Source: an uncultured Planctomycetaceae bacterium | GTDB lineage: Bacteria > Planctomycetota > Phycisphaerae > Sedimentisphaerales > UBA12454 | Assembly (NCBI GenBank): GCA_964449435.1 | Contig: CAYUYR010000004.1 | Location: forward strand, 20,059 to 84,058 | DNA: 64,000 nt | Direction of reading: 5' to 3' | Shown here: piece after piece, positions 2,553 through 37,605 of the stretch | Numbering within the stretch: position 1 is the first letter of the stretch | Layout: every line of letters begins with the position of its first letter | Program-made: the position numbers and the translations under genes | The notes under the pieces: model-generated | What the model was told of the DNA's origin: nothing | Database searches by the model: none | What the model saw: the letters and a program-made list of their open reading frames with translations, nothing else

Positions 2553-2833
2553 ATCTGGCCCCAACTAAAAAGGTTAAAGATTAGCAATTTTAGCCGACCC
2601 TACAAATTATCACAATTCGGCCCACAATGCAACCTTTTATAAAATCAAGTTTTTTAACCCTTTTTCTGTTAAGTGTTTAGAAAACTTCCCAAAAAATTGT
2701 TGGATTTTATGAATTTTTCCCTTGATTTTTTAATTACAAATGTTAAAATATGCGTATATTTGATAATCATATAACTTATAAGCCTTTAAAAGACAAGGCT
2801 TTTTTAACATCTTAAGGTACGGTGAATTTAGTT

Positions 2834-3205
2834 ATGTCCGCACAAAAAATCAGTAAGAACGAGCTTTTGCTTATTTTTGAAAAACATCCGGCAAGGGTGG
2901 CTCTGCTTCCTGCCGCCCAGAGGGCGCTGGTGGCGCTGTTCCTCAGCAGCCGAAGTTTCAGAATACTTGCGAAAGCCGCAGATGCAAACGAGGCCGCCGT
3001 CGCAAGAAAACTGAGAAGCATCGCCGGCAGAATAATCAACGCTCATTTTCTAACCGCCCTGTCGCAGGAAAAGTTGTCCGGAAAAAAAATAGAGGTAATC
3101 AGGGACCATTTCGTAAAAGGGCTGAGCATAAAAACAATCGCACAAAAAACCGGACTATCCCGTTACAGAATAACAAAAATTATTAAGCAAATGAGGACAT
3201 TATGA
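2834..3205 (+). CDS. Small helix-turn-helix protein (sigma70 region-4-like C-terminus)
   Basis: GLSIKTIAQKTGLSRYRITKII HTH; ATGA overlap with the next gene. Confidence 0.65.
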   Translation: MSAQKISKNELLLIFEKHPARVALLPAAQRALVALFLSSRSFRILAKAADANEAAVARKLRSIAGRIINAHFLTALSQEKLSGKKIEVIRDHFVKGLSIKTIAQKTGLSRYRITKIIKQMRTL

Positions 3206-3858
3206 TTACTACATTAACCGCAGAAAAAAAATTCGATTGGAATCTGCCCCTGACCGACAAGGCCGCCGATGTGCTGAGAGCCTTCGGCATAACGGTACAG
3301 AGACTCAAAAGCGGCGCGATAACGCATAGCTGCGAAATAAAATTATCCGCAGGCCAAATTGCTTATATCACAGGCCCGTCTGGAAGCGGAAAAAGCGTAC
3401 TGCTGAGAGAGTTTTTCAGCACCTTTGACAACGATAAAAAAATCAACATCGACGATATACCCCTGCCCGACGACAAAACCACCGTCGATTGCATAGAGGG
3501 AAGTTTTCTCGAGACTCTCAGAACATTAAGCAGCGCAGGCCTTACGGATGTTTTCTGCGTCCTTAATTCACCGGCAACTTTGAGCGAAGGACAGAAATAC
3601 CGATACCGAATAGCAAAGGCAATCAGCAGTGATAAGCAGTTTATCTTTGCAGATGAGTTCTGCTCGAATCTCGACAGGGTAACCGCAGCGGTAATCAGCC
3701 ATAACCTGCGTAAATTCGCGTCAAAGACCGGAAAGGCATTTATCCTTGCAAGCTCACACGACGATTTACTGAGCGATTTGCTGCCTGAAGTCATCGTCAT
3801 CAAACATTTAGCAGGCGATGCGGAACTGATTTATAAAACTCTAAGCACTAAACCATAA
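3202..3858 (+). CDS. Stand-alone soluble ABC-type ATPase
   Basis: Walker A GPSGSGKS, signature LSEGQ, Walker B FIFADEF, H-loop SSH; no permease nearby. Confidence 0.85.
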   Translation: MITTLTAEKKFDWNLPLTDKAADVLRAFGITVQRLKSGAITHSCEIKLSAGQIAYITGPSGSGKSVLLREFFSTFDNDKKINIDDIPLPDDKTTVDCIEGSFLETLRTLSSAGLTDVFCVLNSPATLSEGQKYRYRIAKAISSDKQFIFADEFCSNLDRVTAAVISHNLRKFASKTGKAFILASSHDDLLSDLLPEVIVIKHLAGDAELIYKTLSTKP

Positions 3859-3970
3859 ATACTAAACAAATTCAAAATGCTAATTCTCAAATGCTCAAAA
3901 CGGTTTTGAAAATTGATATTTTGGTAATTCGGATTTGTTTAGGATTTAGAAATTAGAATTTAGGATTTTC
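3842..3970. repeat. Heptamer-periodic imperfect inverted repeat (long hairpin)
   Basis: Arms converge on TCAAAAC-G-GTTTTGA; same family as 23801-23940. Confidence 0.75.
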
Positions 3971-3972
3971 TT

Positions 3973-4833
3973 ATGAACTGCACGATAAAAAAATACTTAA
4001 AGATTGTTGAAGGAAATATTGGCGACTATAAGCCTTTAAGCAGATTTCATTACCGCGACTGCAAAACCGGCCCTGTATCAGCTATCTATAAAATTATAGA
4101 TACACATCCAGCTCGTGCCGCGTTATACGGTTGCGGTCGCGCGACTCGTATCGGCTGCGTAGAACGTAAATCGTCATCCAATACGCAGCCGACAGACGTA
4201 ATACGAAACGAGCAGCGCAACCTATCAACGAAAACCGATAATTGTGAACCGGTCGTTGGAATCATCGTTTATTCTATGCCTGCCTGCTCAGTACAGTTGC
4301 GGAACATCGCGACAAAGGGACTGTTCACAAAACTTGGCTCTGCAAACGCAAATATGCAGTTCGTGAACAATAATATCCGCACAATCGCCCGTGTCGTTAT
4401 TGAGCCGCGATACAGAGCTTTGGGCCTTGCTTACGAATTAGTGCAGAAAACAATGCCGATGCTGAATATGCCTTATATCGAGGCTTTAGCGGTAATGGGA
4501 AAGGTCAATCCGTTCTTTGAAAAGGCGGGTATGATGAGATACGAAGCCCGTCAGTCGCCGCGATGTATTCAGCTCACGCAAGCCCTAAGTGCAGTCGGCA
4601 TTGAGCAGTCCGACCTTGCCGATATAGAAAGAACGCACAATATCCTGCGAAGCCTGAATGGAAAACAAAAGGCGTTTATCGAAAAACAGATTACCAATTT
4701 TCTTACAGCTTACGGCAGGAGGGTAAAAAACCTGCCCGACTGTCTAAAGAGAACCGAATTTTTCATCAGCAGATTATCCGACAGACCCGTTTATTACATC
4801 TGGCGAAATGCTGATGTGAAATTGAAAGTATAA
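3973..4833 (+). CDS. GNAT-fold acyltransferase, Mom-like / ABC-ATPase-associated type
   Basis: LSRFHYR N-terminal motif; acyl-CoA-binding motif RTIARVVIEPRYRALGLA; VMGKVNPFFEKAG. Confidence 0.7.
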   Translation: MNCTIKKYLKIVEGNIGDYKPLSRFHYRDCKTGPVSAIYKIIDTHPARAALYGCGRATRIGCVERKSSSNTQPTDVIRNEQRNLSTKTDNCEPVVGIIVYSMPACSVQLRNIATKGLFTKLGSANANMQFVNNNIRTIARVVIEPRYRALGLAYELVQKTMPMLNMPYIEALAVMGKVNPFFEKAGMMRYEARQSPRCIQLTQALSAVGIEQSDLADIERTHNILRSLNGKQKAFIEKQITNFLTAYGRRVKNLPDCLKRTEFFISRLSDRPVYYIWRNADVKLKV

Positions 4834-4838
4834 AAAGA

Positions 4839-4905
4839 GCCACAAAAACACAAAGGCACGAAGAAAATATATATTAAAAACTTTGTGTCTTAGTACCTTA
4901 GTGGC
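4839..4905. repeat. Octamer-periodic inverted repeat directly after the GNAT gene
   Basis: GCCACAAAAACACAAAGGCACGAAG ... CTTTGTGTCTTAGTACCTTAGTGGC. Confidence 0.65.
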
Positions 4906-4947
4906 AATTAATTTTGCTTTTACAAGTTTATAGCGCAGAGAGACTGA

Positions 4948-4977
4948 TAAAAAAAAGGCCGGTTTTAAGACCGGCCT
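4948..4977 (-). terminator. Intrinsic terminator-like hairpin
   Basis: AGGCCGGT-TTTAAG-ACCGGCCT preceded by a plus-strand A-run. Confidence 0.55.
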
Positions 4978-5062
4978 GTCAGTACTCTTATTTTTTATAA
5001 ATTTCTTATCTAACCGCTTATGATTAAAGCAGTTAACGGGATAAAACTTGCAGATACTTAAA

Positions 5063-5127
5063 TATCAGCAAATTGATTTGTTGATACTGAAATGCCATTT
5101 TAATATCAACAAACTATTTTGTTGATA
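5063..5127. promoter_or_regulatory. Two palindromic boxes TATCA(A/G)CAAA-N4-TTTGTTGATA
   Basis: Copies at 5063-5086 and 5104-5127; the second extends to a perfect 13-bp inverted repeat 5101-5130. Confidence 0.55.
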
Positions 5128-5138
5128 TTATAGTATTT

Positions 5139-5274
5139 TCAAAAAACCTTCTTGCCTTCAGCCGTATTCATAAGCTCGGCAAAAACATATAAAGCAGGGC
5201 GACGGAACAAGTTTTGACCAGTCAATACTCTTGGGCGGGAACTTACCATAATGATATTTTACAGGTTTAGCCAT
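5139..5274 (-). pseudogene. Internally deleted Fic-family gene remnant
   Basis: MAKPVKYHYGKFPPKSIDWSKLVP joined out of frame to RRPALYVFAELMNTAEGKKVF*, resembling the two termini of Fic/DOC-family proteins. Confidence 0.65.
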
Positions 5275-5378
5275 ATTATCTTCTCACAATACCTAATGGA
5301 ATAACCGCCATTCAACTATGCCATAAATCTACCCCTTAACAAAATATAAATCAATCTTTTTTATAAGGAGAAATCCCT

Positions 5379-6020
5379 ATGCAAAATACAATTATCAGAA
5401 TACCGCTTGACAGCCTTTTGCCGCATCCGGAAAACCCCAACAAAATGAGCAAGGCAAACTTTGAAAAGCTCAAGAGGCATATAAAAAAATCTCACAATTA
5501 CGAGCCTTTAATCGTCCGCAAACATCCTGAAATCGAAAACCATTTTCAAATCATCAACGGCCATCACCGCGCAGAGGCCCTAAAGCAAATCGGCGAAACA
5601 TTTGCCGACTGTGTAGAATGGGACATCAACGACGATGCCGCAAGGCTGCTTCTTGCTACACTTAACAGGTTAGGCGGAAAAGATGAACTAAGCGCAAAGG
5701 CGGCTCTATACAAAAACCTGTCAGTCAAATTCAGCGTTCAGGAATTGACTAAGCTCCTGCCGGATGACAAACAGACGATTGAAAAGCTGAAAGACATCAC
5801 AAAACCGCCTGCGGACTTTGCCGAAGACCCAAAGGCGTTTTTAAATACATTGGTTTTCTTCCTCGATGACGGCCAGATTGAAACCGTCGAAAACGCACTT
5901 GAAAAGGCATCGCCGCAGAGCCGCGACCGTAAGGGAGCGGTAAGTAAATCCGAAAAAATGGCAAAAGCAATAACTATAATCGCAAACTCATATCTCAAAG
6001 GAGTGAAAAATGAAACGTAA
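5379..6020 (+). CDS. ParB/Srx-like N-terminal domain protein (phage type)
   Basis: LLPHPENPN...EPLIVR...QIINGHHR; AAGGAG RBS. Confidence 0.85.
   Translation: MQNTIIRIPLDSLLPHPENPNKMSKANFEKLKRHIKKSHNYEPLIVRKHPEIENHFQIINGHHRAEALKQIGETFADCVEWDINDDAARLLLATLNRLGGKDELSAKAALYKNLSVKFSVQELTKLLPDDKQTIEKLKDITKPPADFAEDPKAFLNTLVFFLDDGQIETVENALEKASPQSRDRKGAVSKSEKMAKAITIIANSYLKGVKNET
5917..5941 (+). repeat. REP-like hairpin AGAGCCGCGACCGTAAGGGAGCGGT inside the ParB-like CDS
   Basis: 24/25 identical to 29103-29127. Confidence 0.75.
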
Positions 6021-6819
6021 AAAGATTCAATATGTCTCCCTCGAATCGGGAGCGTTCATCTCAGATTTGATTTTCCAAACGATGACAGCCGAGGAAAAAG
6101 GCGTTTACTGCACACTGATTTTCTATCTCTACGAAAACAACGGCAAACTGCCCTTTGACATCGAGGCATTAAAACATCTTTGCAACTGTCCGGATTTTCA
6201 AAAGGTCTGGGAGTTCGTCAAACAAAAATTCATAATCAAAAACGGCAGAATTTTTCACAAAAGAGTCAGCAAAGAATTAGACAGAGCTAAAAAAATGTCG
6301 CAACTCCAATCAGAAAGAGCGGTTAAGGCGGCAGCAAAACGCTGGCAAAACGATGCTCCAAGCATACCCGCAAGCAATGCTCCAAGCATAGCCAAGCGAA
6401 GTAACGTTCAGCGAAGCGAAGTTCAGGTAAGAGAAAATATCGATACGAGGGATGTCTCATCAATAGCCAAAGACTTACTGCCGCCGCTGCCAACTCCGCA
6501 AAGGCCCAGTATCGCTTCGCAGATTCAATGTCTTAAATCTTCGCTTCGTCCCGCCAACGAAACTGACCCGACGAGTATGGTTGTTTTCTATGACAAATTA
6601 GCAGGCACTTTCGGCGGCAGAACGCCTGCCGATTCTGCCGCCCTGAGAAACCTTGTCCGCTGGCTCAAGGACTCCGTCACAGCAGGGATTTTCACCAAGG
6701 ACATTTATCAGAGGGTTCTCGATATGGCCGCGGACTCCAAAAACGGAAACAGCAGAAAACCGATTGCCGTCTTCTTCGCGCAGGTCAAAAAAGATTTAGG
6801 ATACAAAAAGAACGAGTAA
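6010..6819 (+). CDS. DUF1376/YdaU-like phage replication protein
   Basis: TMTAEEKGVYCTLIFYLYENNGKLP...HKRVSKELDRA...AAAKRW; overlaps the ParB stop; internal direct repeats. Confidence 0.65.
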   Translation: MKRKKIQYVSLESGAFISDLIFQTMTAEEKGVYCTLIFYLYENNGKLPFDIEALKHLCNCPDFQKVWEFVKQKFIIKNGRIFHKRVSKELDRAKKMSQLQSERAVKAAAKRWQNDAPSIPASNAPSIAKRSNVQRSEVQVRENIDTRDVSSIAKDLLPPLPTPQRPSIASQIQCLKSSLRPANETDPTSMVVFYDKLAGTFGGRTPADSAALRNLVRWLKDSVTAGIFTKDIYQRVLDMAADSKNGNSRKPIAVFFAQVKKDLGYKKNE

Positions 6820-6828
6820 TATAAAAAC

Positions 6829-6857
6829 TTGAATTATCAGGACAGGTTTGGTACTCT
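6829..6857 (+). promoter_or_regulatory. sigma70-like promoter of greA
   Basis: TTGAAT-17 nt-TACTCT. Confidence 0.45.
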
Positions 6858-6923
6858 ATCGAAAATCAGGCCCAGCGGCGCCGCTGGGATAAAATGTAAA
6901 GTGTTTAATGGAGATATATCAGG

Positions 6924-7406
6924 ATGTCTGACCTTGTGCCAATATCACTAACGGGCTTTGAAAAGCTCAAGGAGGAACTGACCCGGCTCGAGAAAGAAGC
7001 GGCTGAAACGAGAAAAAGAGTTGCTGAAGCTCGTGAACAGGGCGACCTGAGGGAAAACGGCGAATATACTTACGGCCGTCAGCAACTTGGCTTTATCGAA
7101 GGACGGCTCGGTGAATTGAGAGGGCAAATAAACCTGTCAGACAAAGTTGATTGCACGAAAGTTCAATGCGACCGCGCCGTGTTTGGCACCGTAGTAACTT
7201 TGCTGAATCTGAATACTCAGGAGAAGGCAACCTATCAATTGCTGGGCCCTTATGACGCCGATATCGATACAGGAAGTATTTCTATTCACTCGCCTGTAGG
7301 AGACGCTATCCACGGCCTGGCAATCGGAGACAAGGGGGTAATAAACAAACCCAGCGGCGAGTTCCATTTTGAAGTAATTGACATCGCCAAGCCGCAATTT
7401 GAGTAG
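6924..7406 (+). CDS. greA: Transcription elongation factor GreA
   Basis: AREQGDLRENGEY; FGTVVTL; ISIHSPVG. Confidence 0.92.
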   Translation: MSDLVPISLTGFEKLKEELTRLEKEAAETRKRVAEAREQGDLRENGEYTYGRQQLGFIEGRLGELRGQINLSDKVDCTKVQCDRAVFGTVVTLLNLNTQEKATYQLLGPYDADIDTGSISIHSPVGDAIHGLAIGDKGVINKPSGEFHFEVIDIAKPQFE

Positions 7407-7535
7407 GTCATAAGCGGTTTTTTCTTGATTTTTCCTGAAATTCTGATACAATACTTTTTGTATCTGTAACGGATGACGGAGATTCAGCGGGCAGGACACA
7501 ACGGCTTACTTTTTAAATTTAAGCAGGTATAGGTT

Positions 7536-7901
7536 ATGAAGAAGACTTTGCTATTTTCTATGATGTTTGCCGTTCCGGCAGTTGTCAGTTTTTACGCATT
7601 TGCGGCAGCGCCGGCACAAAAACCGAAACTGCTCGAAATTAAAATCGTCGGCCCTGATTCTGTTCCCGAAAACACGCAAAATATTTTCTGCGTCGTCGCT
7701 GTCTATGACGACGGCTCAGAGGTGGAAGTTACCGCAGATGCGGATGTTAAAGTCGTTTCAGATGAATGTAAAGTTTTGAACATCGGCGGAATTGTCGAGA
7801 CATTCGAGCTTAAAAAAGCGGAAAAGCACTTTACCATTTCCGCAAACTACCGCAGCTTTGAGGTTCAAAAGCCGGTCGTCATTTTCGCCAACAAGAAATA
7901 A
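7536..7901 (+). CDS. Secreted protein with a probable Ig-like beta domain
   Basis: Signal peptide MKKTLLF...AFA; beta-rich IVGPDSVPEN...AVYDDGSEVEVT. Confidence 0.65.
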   Translation: MKKTLLFSMMFAVPAVVSFYAFAAAPAQKPKLLEIKIVGPDSVPENTQNIFCVVAVYDDGSEVEVTADADVKVVSDECKVLNIGGIVETFELKKAEKHFTISANYRSFEVQKPVVIFANKK

Positions 7902-7940
7902 ATAATCCGGCTGAAAAATATTCAGCCGCAGACGGTTCTG

Positions 7941-7977
7941 CAAATCTTCAATATTAAATTTCCAATCTTCAATTCTA
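7941..7977 (+). repeat. Degenerate heptamer tandem repeat upstream of an RBS
   Basis: CAAATCT TCAATAT TAAATTT CCAATCT TCAATTC. Confidence 0.5.
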
Positions 7978-7990
7978 AAGGAGACAAACT

Positions 7991-8383
7991 ATGTCATTAA
8001 CCAAAAAGCAATTAGAGATTATCGATGAATTATTTGAATCCGGCGGCGATGAGACTGCCGTCCTTTCAAGGCACGGAATTACTTTCAGCGACTGGCAAAA
8101 GCAGCTCGCCGAAAAGGATTTTGCCGATGAATTGGCCGCAAGAATGGAATCCTCGAAGCGGCAGGGTCGGATTATTTTGTCCAAGTACGCCCCTTACGCC
8201 GCTACGAAGCTGATTCAGTTATGTGAGAGTGAAAATCAGGAGACGGCCCGCAAGGCCGCTTTGGACATCTTGAATTTGCAGACCGGCTCTCCTGTCGCTG
8301 TCGCTCCAGGCTCCGGCGAACCATTGCCGAGCCTCGACCCCGAAACCGCCTCAAAACTATTAGCCGCTTTAGCTGAAAGCTGA
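7991..8383 (+). CDS. Terminase small subunit-like HTH protein
   Basis: N-terminal HTH (LTKKQLEII...SRHGITFSDW), helical ETARKAALDIL segment, 130 aa; AAGGAG RBS. Confidence 0.55.
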   Translation: MSLTKKQLEIIDELFESGGDETAVLSRHGITFSDWQKQLAEKDFADELAARMESSKRQGRIILSKYAPYAATKLIQLCESENQETARKAALDILNLQTGSPVAVAPGSGEPLPSLDPETASKLLAALAES

Positions 8384-8443: not shown

Positions 8444-8635
8444 CCAAAAATAAGAAAAAAATTCTACAGCAACTAAGCAGAAAACCAAATTTAATTATGA
8501 CCAGTCTGATAAAAAAACGGTTTTGGCATAAACGGCTCCAAAATACGTAAAAATGCTTAATTTCTGTCTTGATTTATACGATAAATAATGTATAATATTT
8601 TCTCCAAATCGTGGTGTTTGTTTGTAAAGTCAGGT

Positions 8636-9373
8636 ATGAGCTTTGTTATGATCCAATCGCCAATCTATATCCATTATCGCATTCAGTGGCAATTTGTTTG
8701 TTCAGGTACACCTGAAAACCTATTTCAAGGGAAAATTTTTCGTCAATTAATGGATAAAATTAACGATGGGACCTCCTTTAATTTTAAAGATTTCTCTGAC
8801 AGAACACCCTCACGCTGCGAAATGGCTAATGCAAGACGTCTTCCAGATGGCATGGATGCTTTCAGTAAATTAGTTTATAACAATGATAAGCTCGCATATA
8901 TAGAAGAATGGGCGGAAATAACCCCTGACGATTTTGAGAAAAATTGCAATAAATTATTGGAAGCATGGTTTAATCTTTTTCCACAAACAGCAATTATAGC
9001 ACAAAGTTCTTGTATCAGGGCATTGGTGCAACCTAACAAGTCCAAAGATTCGAGACAGTTTCTCGGAGACAAAATACTCCATGTGGGAAAAAGTATTAAC
9101 AGTACTTTTAAAAATATGCCTTTTAAAATAGGTTTTGCTTTTGCGTGTGAAAGAAAACAAACGGAGTCTCCGCCGCCGATACCAATTATATTTGACACAA
9201 GTATTAATTCTTGGGCAGATAATAAAAGAGTCTGGATTCAGGTAAGTAGCAATTCACCGCTTTTACCGCCAGTTAATGCAGCTACTTCAGATAGAGGCGC
9301 AAAACCTATTGTCGATATTAAGCAGTTTTTGGAAGAAGAAGTATTAAATCTACTGACCCAATACGATAATTAG
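8636..9373 (+). CDS. Hypothetical protein, first gene of an AT-rich three-gene island
   Basis: Long ORF; start moved to ATG 8636 because TTGATT(8569)..TATAAT(8591) overlaps the earlier ATG. Confidence 0.65.
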   Translation: MSFVMIQSPIYIHYRIQWQFVCSGTPENLFQGKIFRQLMDKINDGTSFNFKDFSDRTPSRCEMANARRLPDGMDAFSKLVYNNDKLAYIEEWAEITPDDFEKNCNKLLEAWFNLFPQTAIIAQSSCIRALVQPNKSKDSRQFLGDKILHVGKSINSTFKNMPFKIGFAFACERKQTESPPPIPIIFDTSINSWADNKRVWIQVSSNSPLLPPVNAATSDRGAKPIVDIKQFLEEEVLNLLTQYDN

Positions 9374-9401
9374 TTAATAAATCTATAACACGGAGAACTA
9401 A

Positions 9402-9770
9402 ATGAATTTAACATATCTTGACAGTCGCACAAATTTAGGGACAGACCTTATCAGTTTACTAGGATTATCGTGCTGGTCTGATACACTAAAAGAATTCGTA
9501 GCCATCTATCCCTCTAATAAACATATTCGCGTAATTATTGGAAATTTGGGTTCTACAATAAGAATGTCGGCACCCAGTTTAAATATAACCGTAGATGGTA
9601 CAACCCAACAAGAAGTTTGGGAGAAATTCCTTAACGTCATTAAAAATCGTGATGACAGCGCCTGGTTGACTTTTGATGTAGGCCCTACAAGAGCAGAGGA
9701 AATTCAGGAAGGATTAGATGCGCCGGAAGATGAAGAATGGTCGGATATGTCTGAAAACTCAGAGGAGTAG
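9402..9770 (+). CDS. Hypothetical protein with a HicB-like segment and acidic tail (putative antitoxin)
   Basis: APSLNITVDGTTQQEVWEKFLNVI; GGAG RBS; directly upstream of a PemK-like gene. Confidence 0.5.
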   Translation: MNLTYLDSRTNLGTDLISLLGLSCWSDTLKEFVAIYPSNKHIRVIIGNLGSTIRMSAPSLNITVDGTTQQEVWEKFLNVIKNRDDSAWLTFDVGPTRAEEIQEGLDAPEDEEWSDMSENSEE

Positions 9771-9772
9771 CA

Positions 9773-10144
9773 ATGCAACCATCTGAATGGATTCCCTTGC
9801 CTGGACATATTATCCGCACAAGTGTGCCTTATACCGACAATCAAGATAGTTCAGATAGATATCCAGTAGTCGTTTCCAGTAAATCCTATAATGAAAAATA
9901 TCCTTATGTCATCGTAGCTTTTACAACTCGTAGTCTAAATATCAAGCACCCCTTCAATTGTGATGTTGAAATATCCGATAAACGCAAAGATTTTAATTTG
10001 ACAGGATTAAGGGAAAGTACCACTGTTCGTTGTTGCAGGTTGCATACAATAAACAAAAATAAAATTTATGCTCATATCGGTTGTGTTCCCGATGATTTGC
10101 TAACGGATATACAACGTTTGGTAGTCCTTAATTTTAAGGATTAA
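9773..10144 (+). CDS. PemK/MazF-family toxin
   Basis: DRYPVVVSSKSYN...VIVAFTT...GLRESTTVRC. Confidence 0.8.
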   Translation: MQPSEWIPLPGHIIRTSVPYTDNQDSSDRYPVVVSSKSYNEKYPYVIVAFTTRSLNIKHPFNCDVEISDKRKDFNLTGLRESTTVRCCRLHTINKNKIYAHIGCVPDDLLTDIQRLVVLNFKD

Positions 10145-10253
10145 ACCAAGCAAAAAAAGGGAATTGGGGCACTCTTAACCTCTCATTACAAGTTCTCTAA
10201 ACCGCCTCGAAAATCCTCGCCGTTTTGGCAGAAAACGGGCAATGTGTGTCCTG

Positions 10254-10274
10254 AATTGTACAAAATGTACAATT
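10254..10274. promoter_or_regulatory. Palindromic TA operator candidate
   Basis: AATTGTACA-AAA-TGTACAATT; TGTACA cores as in yefM-yoeB operators; upstream of a Phd/YefM gene. Confidence 0.55.
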
Positions 10275-10355
10275 TGTAAAAATTGTAATATTTTACTTGA
10301 ACACACCCTGTTTTTATGCGATATTATACATAGTCGGTAATTAAAGGGAAAAACT

Positions 10356-10601
10356 ATGGAAATGGTAAATATAACTGATTTTCGTCAGCACATATCGGAC
10401 ATAACAAACAGGGTAATCTTCGGGGGCGAGAAAATCTGCATCGAACGCAACGGAAAACCCGCCTGCGTCCTCGTAAGCCTTCAGGACAATCAACTGCTCG
10501 AAGCTATAGAAGACAGAATTGACGTCGATGAAGCCCTCAAGGCTCTGAAAAGCAAAAAGTTCGTTTCCTGGTCAAGGGCAAAAAAGAATTTAGGTTTGTG
10601 A
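10356..10601 (+). CDS. Phd/YefM-family antitoxin
   Basis: VNITDFRQHISDITNRV...ICIERNGKPACVLVS. Confidence 0.85.
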   Translation: MEMVNITDFRQHISDITNRVIFGGEKICIERNGKPACVLVSLQDNQLLEAIEDRIDVDEALKALKSKKFVSWSRAKKNLGL

Positions 10602-10605
10602 GCCG

Positions 10606-10875
10606 ATGAAATACCAGATTGTCATCGAACAAAAGGCTCTTGATTTTCTGCAGACCCTGCCGGGCAAGTTCCGGCGTCAGATAGCCTCAAAAATCGACGC
10701 ATTGGCGGTTAATCCTTTCCCCCCAGCTTCTAAAAAGCTCCTGAACACAAATTTTTATCGCATCCGCAGCGGCAATTATAGGATTATTTACTCGGTCAGC
10801 AGGCAGAAAATCACTGTCTTTATTCTTCGCATTGGCGACAGAAAAGATATCTACAAAAAACTGCCTAAGGGCTAA
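10606..10875 (+). CDS. RelE/ParE-family toxin
   Basis: NPFPPASKKL...YRIRSGNYRIIY...RIGDRKDIY. Confidence 0.88.
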   Translation: MKYQIVIEQKALDFLQTLPGKFRRQIASKIDALAVNPFPPASKKLLNTNFYRIRSGNYRIIYSVSRQKITVFILRIGDRKDIYKKLPKG

Positions 10876-11890: not shown

Positions 11891-13372
11891 TCAGTATTTC
11901 CTGCTTCTTGCCGAACTTGAACTGTTGTAATTAACGAAGAAATATCTCAGTGCATCTATCGGGTGGTCGTAAATCCCGTCTTTCAACGGCAATTCCTCAC
12001 AGCCTGCCTGTGGATAATGATAGCACTGCATCGCCTCAATCAATCTGCCGCATCGCGGACTGATAAACAAACTGCTTTGCCCGTCGCCCGAACGCAAAAA
12101 CCTTCTGACAAGCTCAATTCCTTCGAGAATAGAGCTTCTTTTATACCGCAGCTTGACTCCGGCCTGTCTTAACTGGAAAACAGGACTTGTGCCCGTAACG
12201 TCATTAACGCCCGCACCGGCAGGGTCGCAGAAAGTCGCTATTACATTGTCCTCGATAAAAGGCTCTCTGTTCTTAATCTCCTGTGCGTGGCCGTCAATCG
12301 TGATTCTGCTCTTGACATATTCGTCAATAACGCGGACAGTGCCTTTTTCATCGACCTGAATCCAAAGACACACAAACGGATTGACGAATCCGAAATCAAT
12401 CGCCCGATACAAAGGCAGCGACGGATTATACTCAACCTCTTTTATATGAACATCAGGGGCAAACTCCGCAAAGACGACATTTTCGAGCGACGGCCTAAGA
12501 CAAAGCATTTCAGATTCAAACGCCGCCCTGCTGCTTCGCCTCATCTGCGCCAGAACGTCATCAATCTTTAAATACCCGTTCGCTTTTTTTGCCCTGCCGC
12601 GACAATCGTTATTCAAAGGACAACGGCTGCACGAGCGGTCTTTGCAGTTTTCAATCACTTCCCAGACACACCATTTGAACATCGGCACGCCTGCAGACTG
12701 CGCCTTGCCGACAATATCGTGCATTAACCCGAAAGGCTGATGCATTGTACTTAATGTTTCCATCGCGCCGACGATTTCGTCCGTGCTTTTGGTTATGAAC
12801 TTTGCCGCCTCGAAGACCTGCCTGTCGAACAGTTCGACCTCATCGCATCTCAATTTGTGGATATGACTGCCCCGCACGCTCGCCGCAGATTGCGTTAATA
12901 CCTCGACATCGGAGCCGTTCAGAAACCGGCATTTATCCTTGCGGACAGGCCCTGCAAGAAAATCTTCGAAACCGTTGTTCACAAACCCAAGCATATAATC
13001 GTACATTCTTTGCGCCTGTGTTTCGCTGCCCGCAAGAATTCTCGTTTTACAGCCGGGCTTGAAAACACTGTCTAAAAGTGTCGCCGCCGCAGCCAGAAGC
13101 GTTTTGCCGCCGCCGCGGCCCGCCCAGACAACACAATCGCCGCTTTTGCTTTCTCCTGTCGCTTTCGCTCCAGGCTCTGCATAACAGTGCCAAAGATAAT
13201 CGAGCGGACTGTTATGTTCCGGACAGATATTTACATCGCCGATGTCGATGCCGAGAAAAACTTTGAGATAGTTTTTCAAATCGGCTCTCGTCTGCGGCCC
13301 TGTCCTTCTCAGCGTTTCATAAAAATCATTTGCCTTAACGATACGCTCTGTGGATAGACTGGTACTGTTCAT
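11891..13372 (-). CDS. Phage terminase large subunit
   Basis: Walker A GRGGGKT, Walker B LRCDEVE, RNase H-like nuclease RAIDFG...DHPIDALRY. Confidence 0.9.
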   Translation of the reverse strand: MNSTSLSTERIVKANDFYETLRRTGPQTRADLKNYLKVFLGIDIGDVNICPEHNSPLDYLWHCYAEPGAKATGESKSGDCVVWAGRGGGKTLLAAAATLLDSVFKPGCKTRILAGSETQAQRMYDYMLGFVNNGFEDFLAGPVRKDKCRFLNGSDVEVLTQSAASVRGSHIHKLRCDEVELFDRQVFEAAKFITKSTDEIVGAMETLSTMHQPFGLMHDIVGKAQSAGVPMFKWCVWEVIENCKDRSCSRCPLNNDCRGRAKKANGYLKIDDVLAQMRRSSRAAFESEMLCLRPSLENVVFAEFAPDVHIKEVEYNPSLPLYRAIDFGFVNPFVCLWIQVDEKGTVRVIDEYVKSRITIDGHAQEIKNREPFIEDNVIATFCDPAGAGVNDVTGTSPVFQLRQAGVKLRYKRSSILEGIELVRRFLRSGDGQSSLFISPRCGRLIEAMQCYHYPQAGCEELPLKDGIYDHPIDALRYFFVNYNSSSSARSRKY

Positions 13373-13489
13373 TATGAAATCCTCTAAAAAAATTGTAGAA
13401 ATAAAATGTGTAAATTATGGTGAACGGCAGTTCCGAATCAGTCGGAACTCCTCGGTTTTTAAGTCTTAAAAAACCCTTATTTTGTGCGT

Positions 13490-13518
13490 ATTATACCATA
13501 AAACCGTCTAAAAATCAA
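13490..13518 (-). promoter_or_regulatory. sigma70 promoter of the terminase gene
   Basis: Minus strand TTGATT-17 nt-TATAAT with TGn extended -10. Confidence 0.65.
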
Positions 13519-13640
13519 GGTTTTTTTCGTCTCTAATGCTTTTTTATTGCGCAACTTGCATAAAAACGCCCTTTGGCGTATAATTCGGATATTGTTTGAG
13601 ATAAAATCGTTCATTTTTAAGTTTATATTTTGAGTTTTTT

Positions 13641-14172
13641 TGTCCGGCGGGTCGGGCGGCCGCCCAGCACCTACTTTATTCAGTTTCGGATTTTGGGGAT
13701 TATGTGAATATAATTCTGTGTCTCTTTGGGGACGTATCTTTATGGACTGGTTAAAGTAGGTGCTGGGAGGAAAGTCCGGGCAGGACAGGGCGCGGTGATG
13801 GCTAACTGCCACCGTATTTGAGATTTCAGATAAAGGGAAAGTGCCACAGAAAATACACAGCCCCGCACCTACTTTGTTCAGTAACAAAGGTTTATAAAAA
13901 TCAAATAATTGGAATTGCTGATACAGCTCGATTTAACGTCTCGGACTGGGCAAAGTAGGTGTGGGGTAAAGGTGAAAAGGTGCGGTAAGAGCGCACCGCG
14001 ATTTTGGCGACAGAATCGGCAAGGCAAACCCCACCGCCTGCAAGACCAAGTATGCCGGCATGCTCTGCCCGAGCGCTAATCCGGCGGGTAGGTCGCTTGA
14101 GCCTGTCAGTAATGGCAGGCCTTAGAGAAATGGTCGCTTATTACAGAACCCGGCTTATAGACCCGGCGGACA
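13641..14172 (+). ncRNA. rnpB: RNase P RNA, type A, with extended P3 and P12
   Basis: GAGGAAAGTCC (13767-13777), AGTGCCACAGAAA, GGTGAAAAGGTGCGGTAAGAGCGCACC, ACAGAACCCGGCTTA; P1 TGTCCGGCGGGTC / GACCCGGCGGACA. Confidence 0.96.
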
Positions 14173-14227
14173 AAAAAATTGATTACTTCCTCTTATCTGC
14201 TTTTGTATATAATGGTTTGTCGCCGAG

Positions 14228-36633: not shown

Positions 36634-37605
36634 ATGATAGACCACAGTGAAAAAAAGGTGATAGAGCGGATAATTGCCCTTCGTGAGGATTTTTCAGGTA
36701 AACGCGGCAGGAAGAAATTCGCTGCTTTGCTTGGTATAAGTCCTTCTACATACAGCTATTACGAAAAAGACAGGGTTCCGCCAATTCCGATACTGCTCAA
36801 GATATGCGAAATATGCAATGTCGGTATCGGTTGGCTTTTGACCGGCAAAAATGACGAAAAAGGCGGGAAAAACGACCAGATTTCCCTAAAAATCCGGAAA
36901 CTTATCGAAAAACAATCTGCTTCTTTACAGGCAATATTGGCGTTTTTAGACCTTCTCGAACAGGAAACCTCTCTTGCTCTTGCGGCAAGCCAGGGCAAGC
37001 CTAAAACCTCGCAGCAGGATTCGGCGGGCTGGATACCAGTTCTGGGCAGGACGGCTGCCGGGGTTGCGGGCCTTTGGGAAGAGGTTATCGGCACCGATTC
37101 CAACGTTCTCGAAACGCATCTCGAAGAGCTGGTTCAAAAGCATATTAACGCTTCGATTGTTAATTCTATGGCGACCGTTCTTCTAATCGATTCGCACGCC
37201 AGACCTATTATACAGGCTTTAAGCGATATTCAGGCAAATCTCGTTCAAACCGCCGGCGGAGACGACCAAATTGTTCAATTTGTGGACTGCCCGCAAATAC
37301 GGGAATTATTGCCGGACTGTTTTGCGCTGCAAATTGACGGCGACAGTATGGCTCCGAGGATTAACGACGGCGATATAGTTATAGTAAGCCCTTCGATACC
37401 GGCCGGTTCTACCCTGCCTGCCATTGTCAGAATATCGGGGGCGATAGGCGTAACCTGCAAACTCGTGAGAATAGAAGGCCAGACGGTACATCTTGTTCCG
37501 ATAAATGAAAAATACGATACGAAAATTGTGGAAAGAAAAGACCTTTTATGGGCACTTGCCGTATTATGCCATATAAGGCTGAAAAACGTAGATTCTTTCT
37601 GCTGA
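36634..37605 (+). CDS. XRE-HTH + S24 peptidase repressor (cI/LexA-like)
   Basis: FAALLGISPSTYSYYEKD HTH; IPVLGRTAAG; FALQIDGDSMAP (Ser) and VTCK (Lys). Confidence 0.9.
   Translation: MIDHSEKKVIERIIALREDFSGKRGRKKFAALLGISPSTYSYYEKDRVPPIPILLKICEICNVGIGWLLTGKNDEKGGKNDQISLKIRKLIEKQSASLQAILAFLDLLEQETSLALAASQGKPKTSQQDSAGWIPVLGRTAAGVAGLWEEVIGTDSNVLETHLEELVQKHINASIVNSMATVLLIDSHARPIIQALSDIQANLVQTAGGDDQIVQFVDCPQIRELLPDCFALQIDGDSMAPRINDGDIVIVSPSIPAGSTLPAIVRISGAIGVTCKLVRIEGQTVHLVPINEKYDTKIVERKDLLWALAVLCHIRLKNVDSFC

Follow-up and report, generated by a model that had tools for sequence, protein, structure and literature searches.

A vertically inherited large terminase with a four-cysteine segment, and a candidate GTA-like packaging system, in the Phycisphaerae

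The window analysed here is a stretch of 64,000 nucleotides from the 131-kb contig C4 of an uncultured Planctomycetaceae bacterium. It holds a gene for a large terminase subunit (TerL), divergent from the RNase P RNA gene, together with the separated genes of what is, in relatives, a single packaging operon. The features needed for the argument are as follows (window coordinates unless stated otherwise):

2822-3205 (+), HTH gene, operon front
3202-3858 (+), ABC-type ATPase gene, operon front
3973-4833 (+), partner protein gene, operon front
5379-6020 (+), ParB-like gene, operon front
2822-6020 (+), operon front as a whole, contiguous with the TerS-like gene and TerL in relatives
7991-8383 (+), TerS-like gene (130 aa), the one immediately before TerL in relatives
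9773-10144, MazF/PemK; 10356-10601, Phd; 10606-10875, ParE
11891-13372 (-), TerL gene, 493 aa, from the ORF and its family, profile and fold matches
11954-12397 (-), nuclease active-site region, with D326, D383, D469, H470 and D473
12602-12646 (-), Cys4 motif C243-X4-C248-X2-C251-X5-C257, CKDRSCSRCPLNNDC, residues 243-257
12839-12856 (-), Walker B and catalytic Glu, residues 173-178, KLRCDE, from homologue alignments
13100-13120 (-), Walker A codons, residues 85-91, GRGGGKT, from homologue alignments
13380-13385 (-), ribosome-binding site AGAGGA, 7 nt before the ATG, conserved as AAGGA/AGAGGA
13426-13475 (-), two leader hairpins, weak and lineage-specific, in a leader of about 110 nt
13490-13518 (-), sigma-70-type promoter TTGATT-17-TATAAT with a TG extended -10, 10/12 consensus matches
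13644-14173 (+), rnpB (RNase P RNA; RF00010, 271.7 bits), divergent from TerL
C4:6439-9817 (contig coordinates), cluster encoding the portal, scaffold and SU10-type capsid proteins, beyond the window at a distance of 22 kb from TerL

Sequence comparison and structure prediction together confirm the ORF as a large terminase with intact ATPase and nuclease motifs, arranged as an N-terminal ASCE ATPase, a Cys4 lid/linker segment and a C-terminal RNase H-like nuclease. Pfam Terminase_6C is matched above its cut-off (1e-5; 26 bits against 22.6) and Terminase_6N below it (0.0055; 16.8 against 22 bits), PHROG_2 (terminase large subunit) is matched at 4e-19, and a profile of 42 TerL homologues recovers TerLs of known structure (Thermus phage D6E, P22, SPP1 and T4), including the nucleases of D6E, P22 and SPP1. 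An AlphaFold2 (AF2) model with a pLDDT of 91.5 has the full-length, two-domain TerL fold, Foldseek returning the D6E TerL as its best match (E 1.5e-18), followed by T4 gp17, HK97 and Sf6. Across the 42 diverse homologues R86 and K90 of Walker A, D177 and E178 of Walker B, S208/T209 and the nuclease residue D326 are all invariant, with D383, D469, H470 and D473 nearly so. The gene is single-copy, its product being the only Terminase_6C protein in the source genome. With the solved phage proteins (D6E/G20c TerL, 5oe8/5oea; T4 gp17; HK97 TerL; the P22 gp2 and SPP1 G2P nucleases) it shares the ATPase and RNase H-like folds, Walker A and B motifs and acidic nuclease residues; it differs from them in sequence (9-17% identity), in the Cys4 segment of some 20 residues within its lid/linker, and in being chromosomal, vertically inherited and, in the source genome, without a portal gene at its side.

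An earlier note on this DNA had placed a four-cysteine motif between the ATPase and the nuclease, and that is where we find it. All four cysteines are invariant across the 42 homologues, and the pattern C-X4/5-C-X2-C-X5-C recurs in 114 of 150 representatives of the family (clustered at 50% identity). This invariance, along with the inter-domain position, suggests that the lid/linker holds a putative structural site for a metal, either Zn or Fe-S. The [4Fe-4S] loop of endonuclease III/MutY (C-X6-C-X2-C-X5-C) likewise packs four cysteines into about 15-17 residues of a DNA-processing enzyme, with the same X2 and X5 spacings, whereas its first spacing (6 rather than 4-5 residues) and its fold context are different; given this resemblance both metals are possible, and a zinc ‘knuckle’ appears as plausible as an Fe-S cluster. 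Domestication is not the source of the segment: many viral-contig TerLs in IMG/VR carry the motif, and the TerL of Microcystis phage Mvi-JY20 has a four-cysteine variant of different spacing at the same position (a Rhizobium phage TerL aligns without the segment), so that the motif is better seen as ancestral to this TerL clade. Our literature search, of incomplete coverage, found no phage TerL described as having a Zn or Fe-S site.

Upstream of TerL, the sigma-70-type promoter and the divergent arrangement with rnpB are both as previously described. The -35 and extended -10 elements are kept in five of nine same-genus relatives, with a spacer that varies, such that within this genus the gene does have a conserved promoter of its own; adjacency to rnpB is likewise seen within the genus only. 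The promoter looks to be of a strong, constitutive sigma-70 type, which is found at around 11 stringent sites in the genome and represents its strongest consensus promoters; the number of promoter-like matches around TerL is not above chance for the region. Of the leader hairpins (13454-13475 and 13426-13451) it can be said that they exist, but they barely beat shuffled sequences (z -1.6 to -1.8) and have no conserved counterpart in relatives, and we have dropped them as evidence of regulation; they are also unique in the genome, and so do not constitute a repeat family. A further observation is that the promoters of TerL, of the HTH operon and of the ORF at 7536-7901 have in common a block, CTTGATTTTT, with a TGn extended -10 (at about 2735-2765, 7425-7455 and 13490-13520 of the window). 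As CTTGATTTT is found at 70 places in the genome, where 21 would be expected, this block is probably a general strong-promoter consensus.

Locally, the description of TerL as ‘solo’ stands: it lies 3.5 kb from the TerS-like gene and on the opposite strand, and there is no portal gene, or any conserved gene, downstream of it. Elsewhere the description does not stand, as in relatives (among them G138, G037 and G047) TerL closes a co-directional operon that runs HTH, ABC-type ATPase, partner, sometimes ParB-like, TerS-like, sometimes a 142-aa gene, and then TerL. The counterparts of these genes in the window span 2822-8383(+), with TerL inverted relative to them, and the TerS-like protein has a weak match to the small terminase family phrog_2538 (E 5e-4). 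Sitting between the TerS-like gene and TerL are a DUF1376 (primosome-like) gene, which is not conserved in the operons of relatives, greA, unknown genes, and MazF and Phd/ParE toxin-antitoxin modules; the unknown and toxin-antitoxin ORFs at 8588-10875 are likely the insert that broke the operon. TerL is also uncoupled in G011 and G169.

Beside the operon in G047, G096 and G082 there is a divergent gene for an HTH-S24 peptidase of the CI/LexA-like kind (L014:5422-6351(-), L015:12712-13650(+), L020:12640-13572(+)), whose position hints at SOS-type control. Compared with this operon-adjacent protein as a candidate for its displaced counterpart, the HTH-S24 repressor encoded in the window (36634-37605) shows no more than a generic S24-domain similarity (31% over 93 aa).

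The source genome also encodes an SPP1-type portal (PF05133, 1.9e-17) and an SU10-type capsid protein (MCP; PF17236, 2.4e-83), and has no match to the HK97-type capsid (PF05065) or Phage_portal (PF04860) models. TerL itself does not lie beside TerS and portal genes there, whereas it adjoins a TerS-like gene in G138, G037 and G047, and a portal gene in G116. In this last genome TerL, an SPP1-type portal and an SU10-type MCP follow one another contiguously in a module of 8 kb. Housekeeping genes border it on both sides (type II secretion, GH43 and adenylosuccinate lyase), and there is no integrase. Among genomes the spacing between TerL and the portal gene is as small as 0.2 kb, and the capsid gene lies anywhere between 2 kb and about 1 Mb from TerL. 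Across 150 near-complete genomes of the class, beyond the 41 sampled in the order, TerL and MCP occur together in 85, TerL alone in 8, MCP alone in 4 and neither in 53, these genomes being interrelated, so that the counts overstate independence. MCP, found in 89 of the 150 at 50-76% identity, is better conserved than TerL, and its pattern mirrors that of TerL family by family, with f11, f20 and f23 lacking both. The eight genomes with TerL alone comprise seven assemblies and the closed genome G047, which has the operon and an intact TerL, and in which no SU10 MCP, SPP1 portal or HK97 capsid was found. The conserved operon and this class-wide association with portal and capsid genes leave the picture of a solitary, repurposed ATPase-nuclease unsupported, and point to the lone enzyme being less fitting than a GTA-like system as an account of TerL.

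Nine co-directional ORFs follow the MCP gene (L022:83-6334(-), on contig C4 of G000) in a cluster that runs off the contig end. A 378-aa product resembles right-handed beta-helix proteins, and is in that sense ‘tailspike-like’, and a 601-aa product resembles clusters of viral tail proteins, both of them language-model look-alikes only. The 601-aa protein is detectable in 17 of 61 genomes and, where detected, lies 6-8 kb past the MCP gene in relatives from several families. No integrase was found on contig C4, the three tyrosine recombinases of the source genome all being encoded on other contigs.

Turning to ownership of the gene, a TerL orthologue is present in all 41 genomes sampled in the order, nearly always as one copy, with identities of 68-96% in the genus, 64-84% in the family and 50-64% in the order. 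A strong orthologue is found in 93 of the 150 further class genomes (36-64% identity), with some families lacking it in all genomes sampled, and outside the class in 3 of about 187 genomes of the phylum; identity thus declines with kinship, from 96% down to 36%. A wider search gave more than 2000 homologues, the best 120 of which are 64-94% identical and, where named, come from Planctomycetes, Phycisphaerae or Sedimentisphaerales MAGs. The nearest TerL of an isolated phage is 22-30% identical. Viral contigs gave no match when searched with the single TerL protein, and a profile search returned only distant TerLs without the rest of the module. These viral-contig TerLs and that of Mvi-JY20 belong to the same clade, have their four cysteines in the same position and are 26-45% identical; the nearest viral contigs reach at most 45% and have none of the module's other genes.

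In a tree that includes the viral-contig relatives, the host TerLs form one supported clade with an inner order that matches taxonomy, rather than being nested among the TerLs of temperate phages, an outcome that the earlier note had named as fatal to its reading. Two ‘viral’ rows inside the host clade have host-operon neighbours, and so look like host fragments; the G047 TerL has a long branch. With dN/dS values of 0.05-0.10 against close relatives, the sequence record is that of a gene under strong purifying selection and, taken with its single copy and vertical spread through the order and on into the class, that of an old, vertically inherited host gene, not a recent phage gene; in this part the interpretation in the earlier note is supported. 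An observation on the side concerns the f10 family, where the TerLs of eight genomes (G042, G065, G072, G085, G092, G099, G120 and G146) match in three pieces and are each encoded by one open frame of 553-707 aa, consistent with two lineage-specific insertions, near residues 228 and 343.

Synthesising these findings, we propose that TerL is the packaging motor of a domesticated, class-wide, GTA-like packaging-and-head system, known here from its genes; we consider this reasonably probable. An ancestor of most Phycisphaerae would have acquired TerL from a phage, with vertical descent ever since, as part of a module comprising the HTH regulator, ABC-type ATPase, partner, ParB-like, TerS-like and TerL genes, together with an SPP1-type portal, scaffold, SU10-type capsid and tail-like genes, which has presumably stayed contiguous in some lineages and become scattered over the chromosome in others. 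In the genus studied here, we suggest that TerL was inverted and cut from its operon by the insertion of greA, the DUF1376 gene and the toxin-antitoxin genes, and that the detached gene then gained its own sigma-70-type promoter beside rnpB. Guided by the TerS-like protein, TerL would cut DNA with its RNase H-like nuclease, dock onto the portal and use its ATPase to pump the DNA into procapsids; in other words, we infer both that particles are made and that host DNA is what they package. The Cys4 ‘knuckle’, inherited from the phage ancestor, would probably bind a metal ion and so stiffen the lid/linker between the two domains.

What marks a GTA particle is a cargo of essentially random host DNA, in an amount that could not encode the system itself, and the delivery of this DNA to recipients (PMC11841831). 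At the level of the genome, the Phycisphaerae show phage-derived head and packaging genes, vertical inheritance within a host clade, purifying selection, no integrase on contig C4 and dispersed loci. Saying this, several points count against the GTA-like reading. GTAs are said to lack replication genes (PMC11841831), and yet a conserved ParB-like gene and a DUF1376 gene lie in the region; known GTAs are tightly controlled, and the strong, constitutive-type promoter of TerL does not fit with this; in G047 the operon is retained and no capsid or portal gene was detected, and seven further assemblies have TerL only; and the tail assignments are mere leads.

It is G047, the weak tail leads, the promoter and the extra operon genes that keep two other explanations alive. 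In the first, which extends the idea of the earlier note to the operon, TerL and its operon might work without a capsid on DNA of the chromosome or of foreign origin, for example to defend the cell or to repair or modify DNA, with the capsid genes a separate relic. The uncoupling of TerL in this genus, under a conserved promoter of its own, and again in G011 and G169, would suit such a role, as would the closed genome of G047 and the full set of eight genomes with TerL and no MCP match. Set against these, 85 of the 97 genomes with either gene have both, three families (f11, f20 and f23) are without the two together, MCP is better conserved than the TerL it would be a relic beside, TerL, portal and MCP are contiguous in G116, every feature of a packaging terminase is retained in TerL, and G047 has its TerL on a long branch; we regard a capsid-free role as unlikely. 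Alternatively, capsid particles could be formed that transfer no genes, and which serve as a killer or decoy particle, as a satellite helper, or in the disposal or export of DNA. The same genomic evidence would be expected in this case as for a GTA, since sequence specifies neither cargo nor delivery, and the ABC-type ATPase, partner and ParB-like genes have no place in known GTAs. What counts against particles of this sort is that, among vertically inherited modules with terminase, portal, capsid and tail genes, all those studied to date are GTAs (PMC11841831); these too we think rather unlikely.

A decaying cryptic prophage, or an active temperate phage common to these genomes, might be suspected from the cluster of TerL, TerS-like, ParB-like and DUF1376 genes near toxin-antitoxin genes and beside an RNA gene. 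Either would be expected to be contiguous and to carry an integrase, with a patchy spread at strain level or pseudogenised copies, and in distribution, dN/dS and integrase content the locus is otherwise: catalytic residues are invariant across the class and dN/dS is low, identity tracks taxonomy, module genes can be as close as 0.2 kb (TerL and portal) or as distant as about 1 Mb (TerL and capsid) in different genomes, contig C4 has no integrase, and no close viral contig was found. We consider this explanation very improbable.

The nearest parallel to the GTA-like reading is RcGTA of Rhodobacter capsulatus (the g2 TerL and the head-tail cluster), which similarly has phage-derived TerS, TerL, portal and capsid genes that are vertically inherited throughout a large clade of hosts and under purifying selection, with no integrase, several loci and host-type control (PMC11841831, PMC5721377). 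The Phycisphaerae system, in a phylum other than that of the alphaproteobacterial RcGTA and seen here through its genes alone, would be of independent origin; it has an SU10-type capsid, an SPP1-type portal and a TerL of the Cys4 clade, with conserved genes for an ABC-type ATPase, a partner and a ParB-like protein added in front of TerS, and its TerL is detachable. That this is an undescribed and independently domesticated GTA-like system of the Phycisphaerae, with a Cys4 TerL as its motor and accessory genes without counterpart in known GTAs, whose packaging operon in some lineages persists after the capsid genes are gone and may there serve a second role that needs no capsid, is a fuller proposal that we put forward tentatively, and would stop just short of calling probable.

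Established GTA families include RcGTA, BaGTA, Dd1, VSH-1 and VTA, none of them from the Planctomycetota; a literature search, of incomplete coverage, for a GTA in Planctomycetes or Phycisphaerae found nothing relevant. If the GTA-like reading is true, an independent domestication of terminase, portal and capsid would be added in a phylum with unusual cell biology, and cultured Phycisphaerae would provide a test bed for it. There is, besides, a TerL clade with an invariant four-cysteine site, of which we found no description in the literature searched, and the case illustrates the breakup of a domesticated viral operon, with single genes rewired to host promoters.

Two observations from the viral side remain to be recorded. 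In a sister viral clade the ATPase and Cys4 part of TerL is encoded on its own by an ORF of about 300-320 aa ending near residue 310, and a homologue of the nuclease lies 0.5-4 kb upstream on the same strand, the two parts thus being in swapped order (L048:7292-9514 and 32 other viral-contig loci, for example L028, L033, L050, L057 and L077). The cultured, 116-kb Rhizobium phage RHph_N1_10 (L024:1-1687), the portal of which has no similarity to that of the source genome, has its TerL, portal and capsid genes immediately preceded by two genes annotated ‘ABC transporter ATP-binding’, so that the placing of an ABC-type ATPase before the terminase is itself of phage origin.
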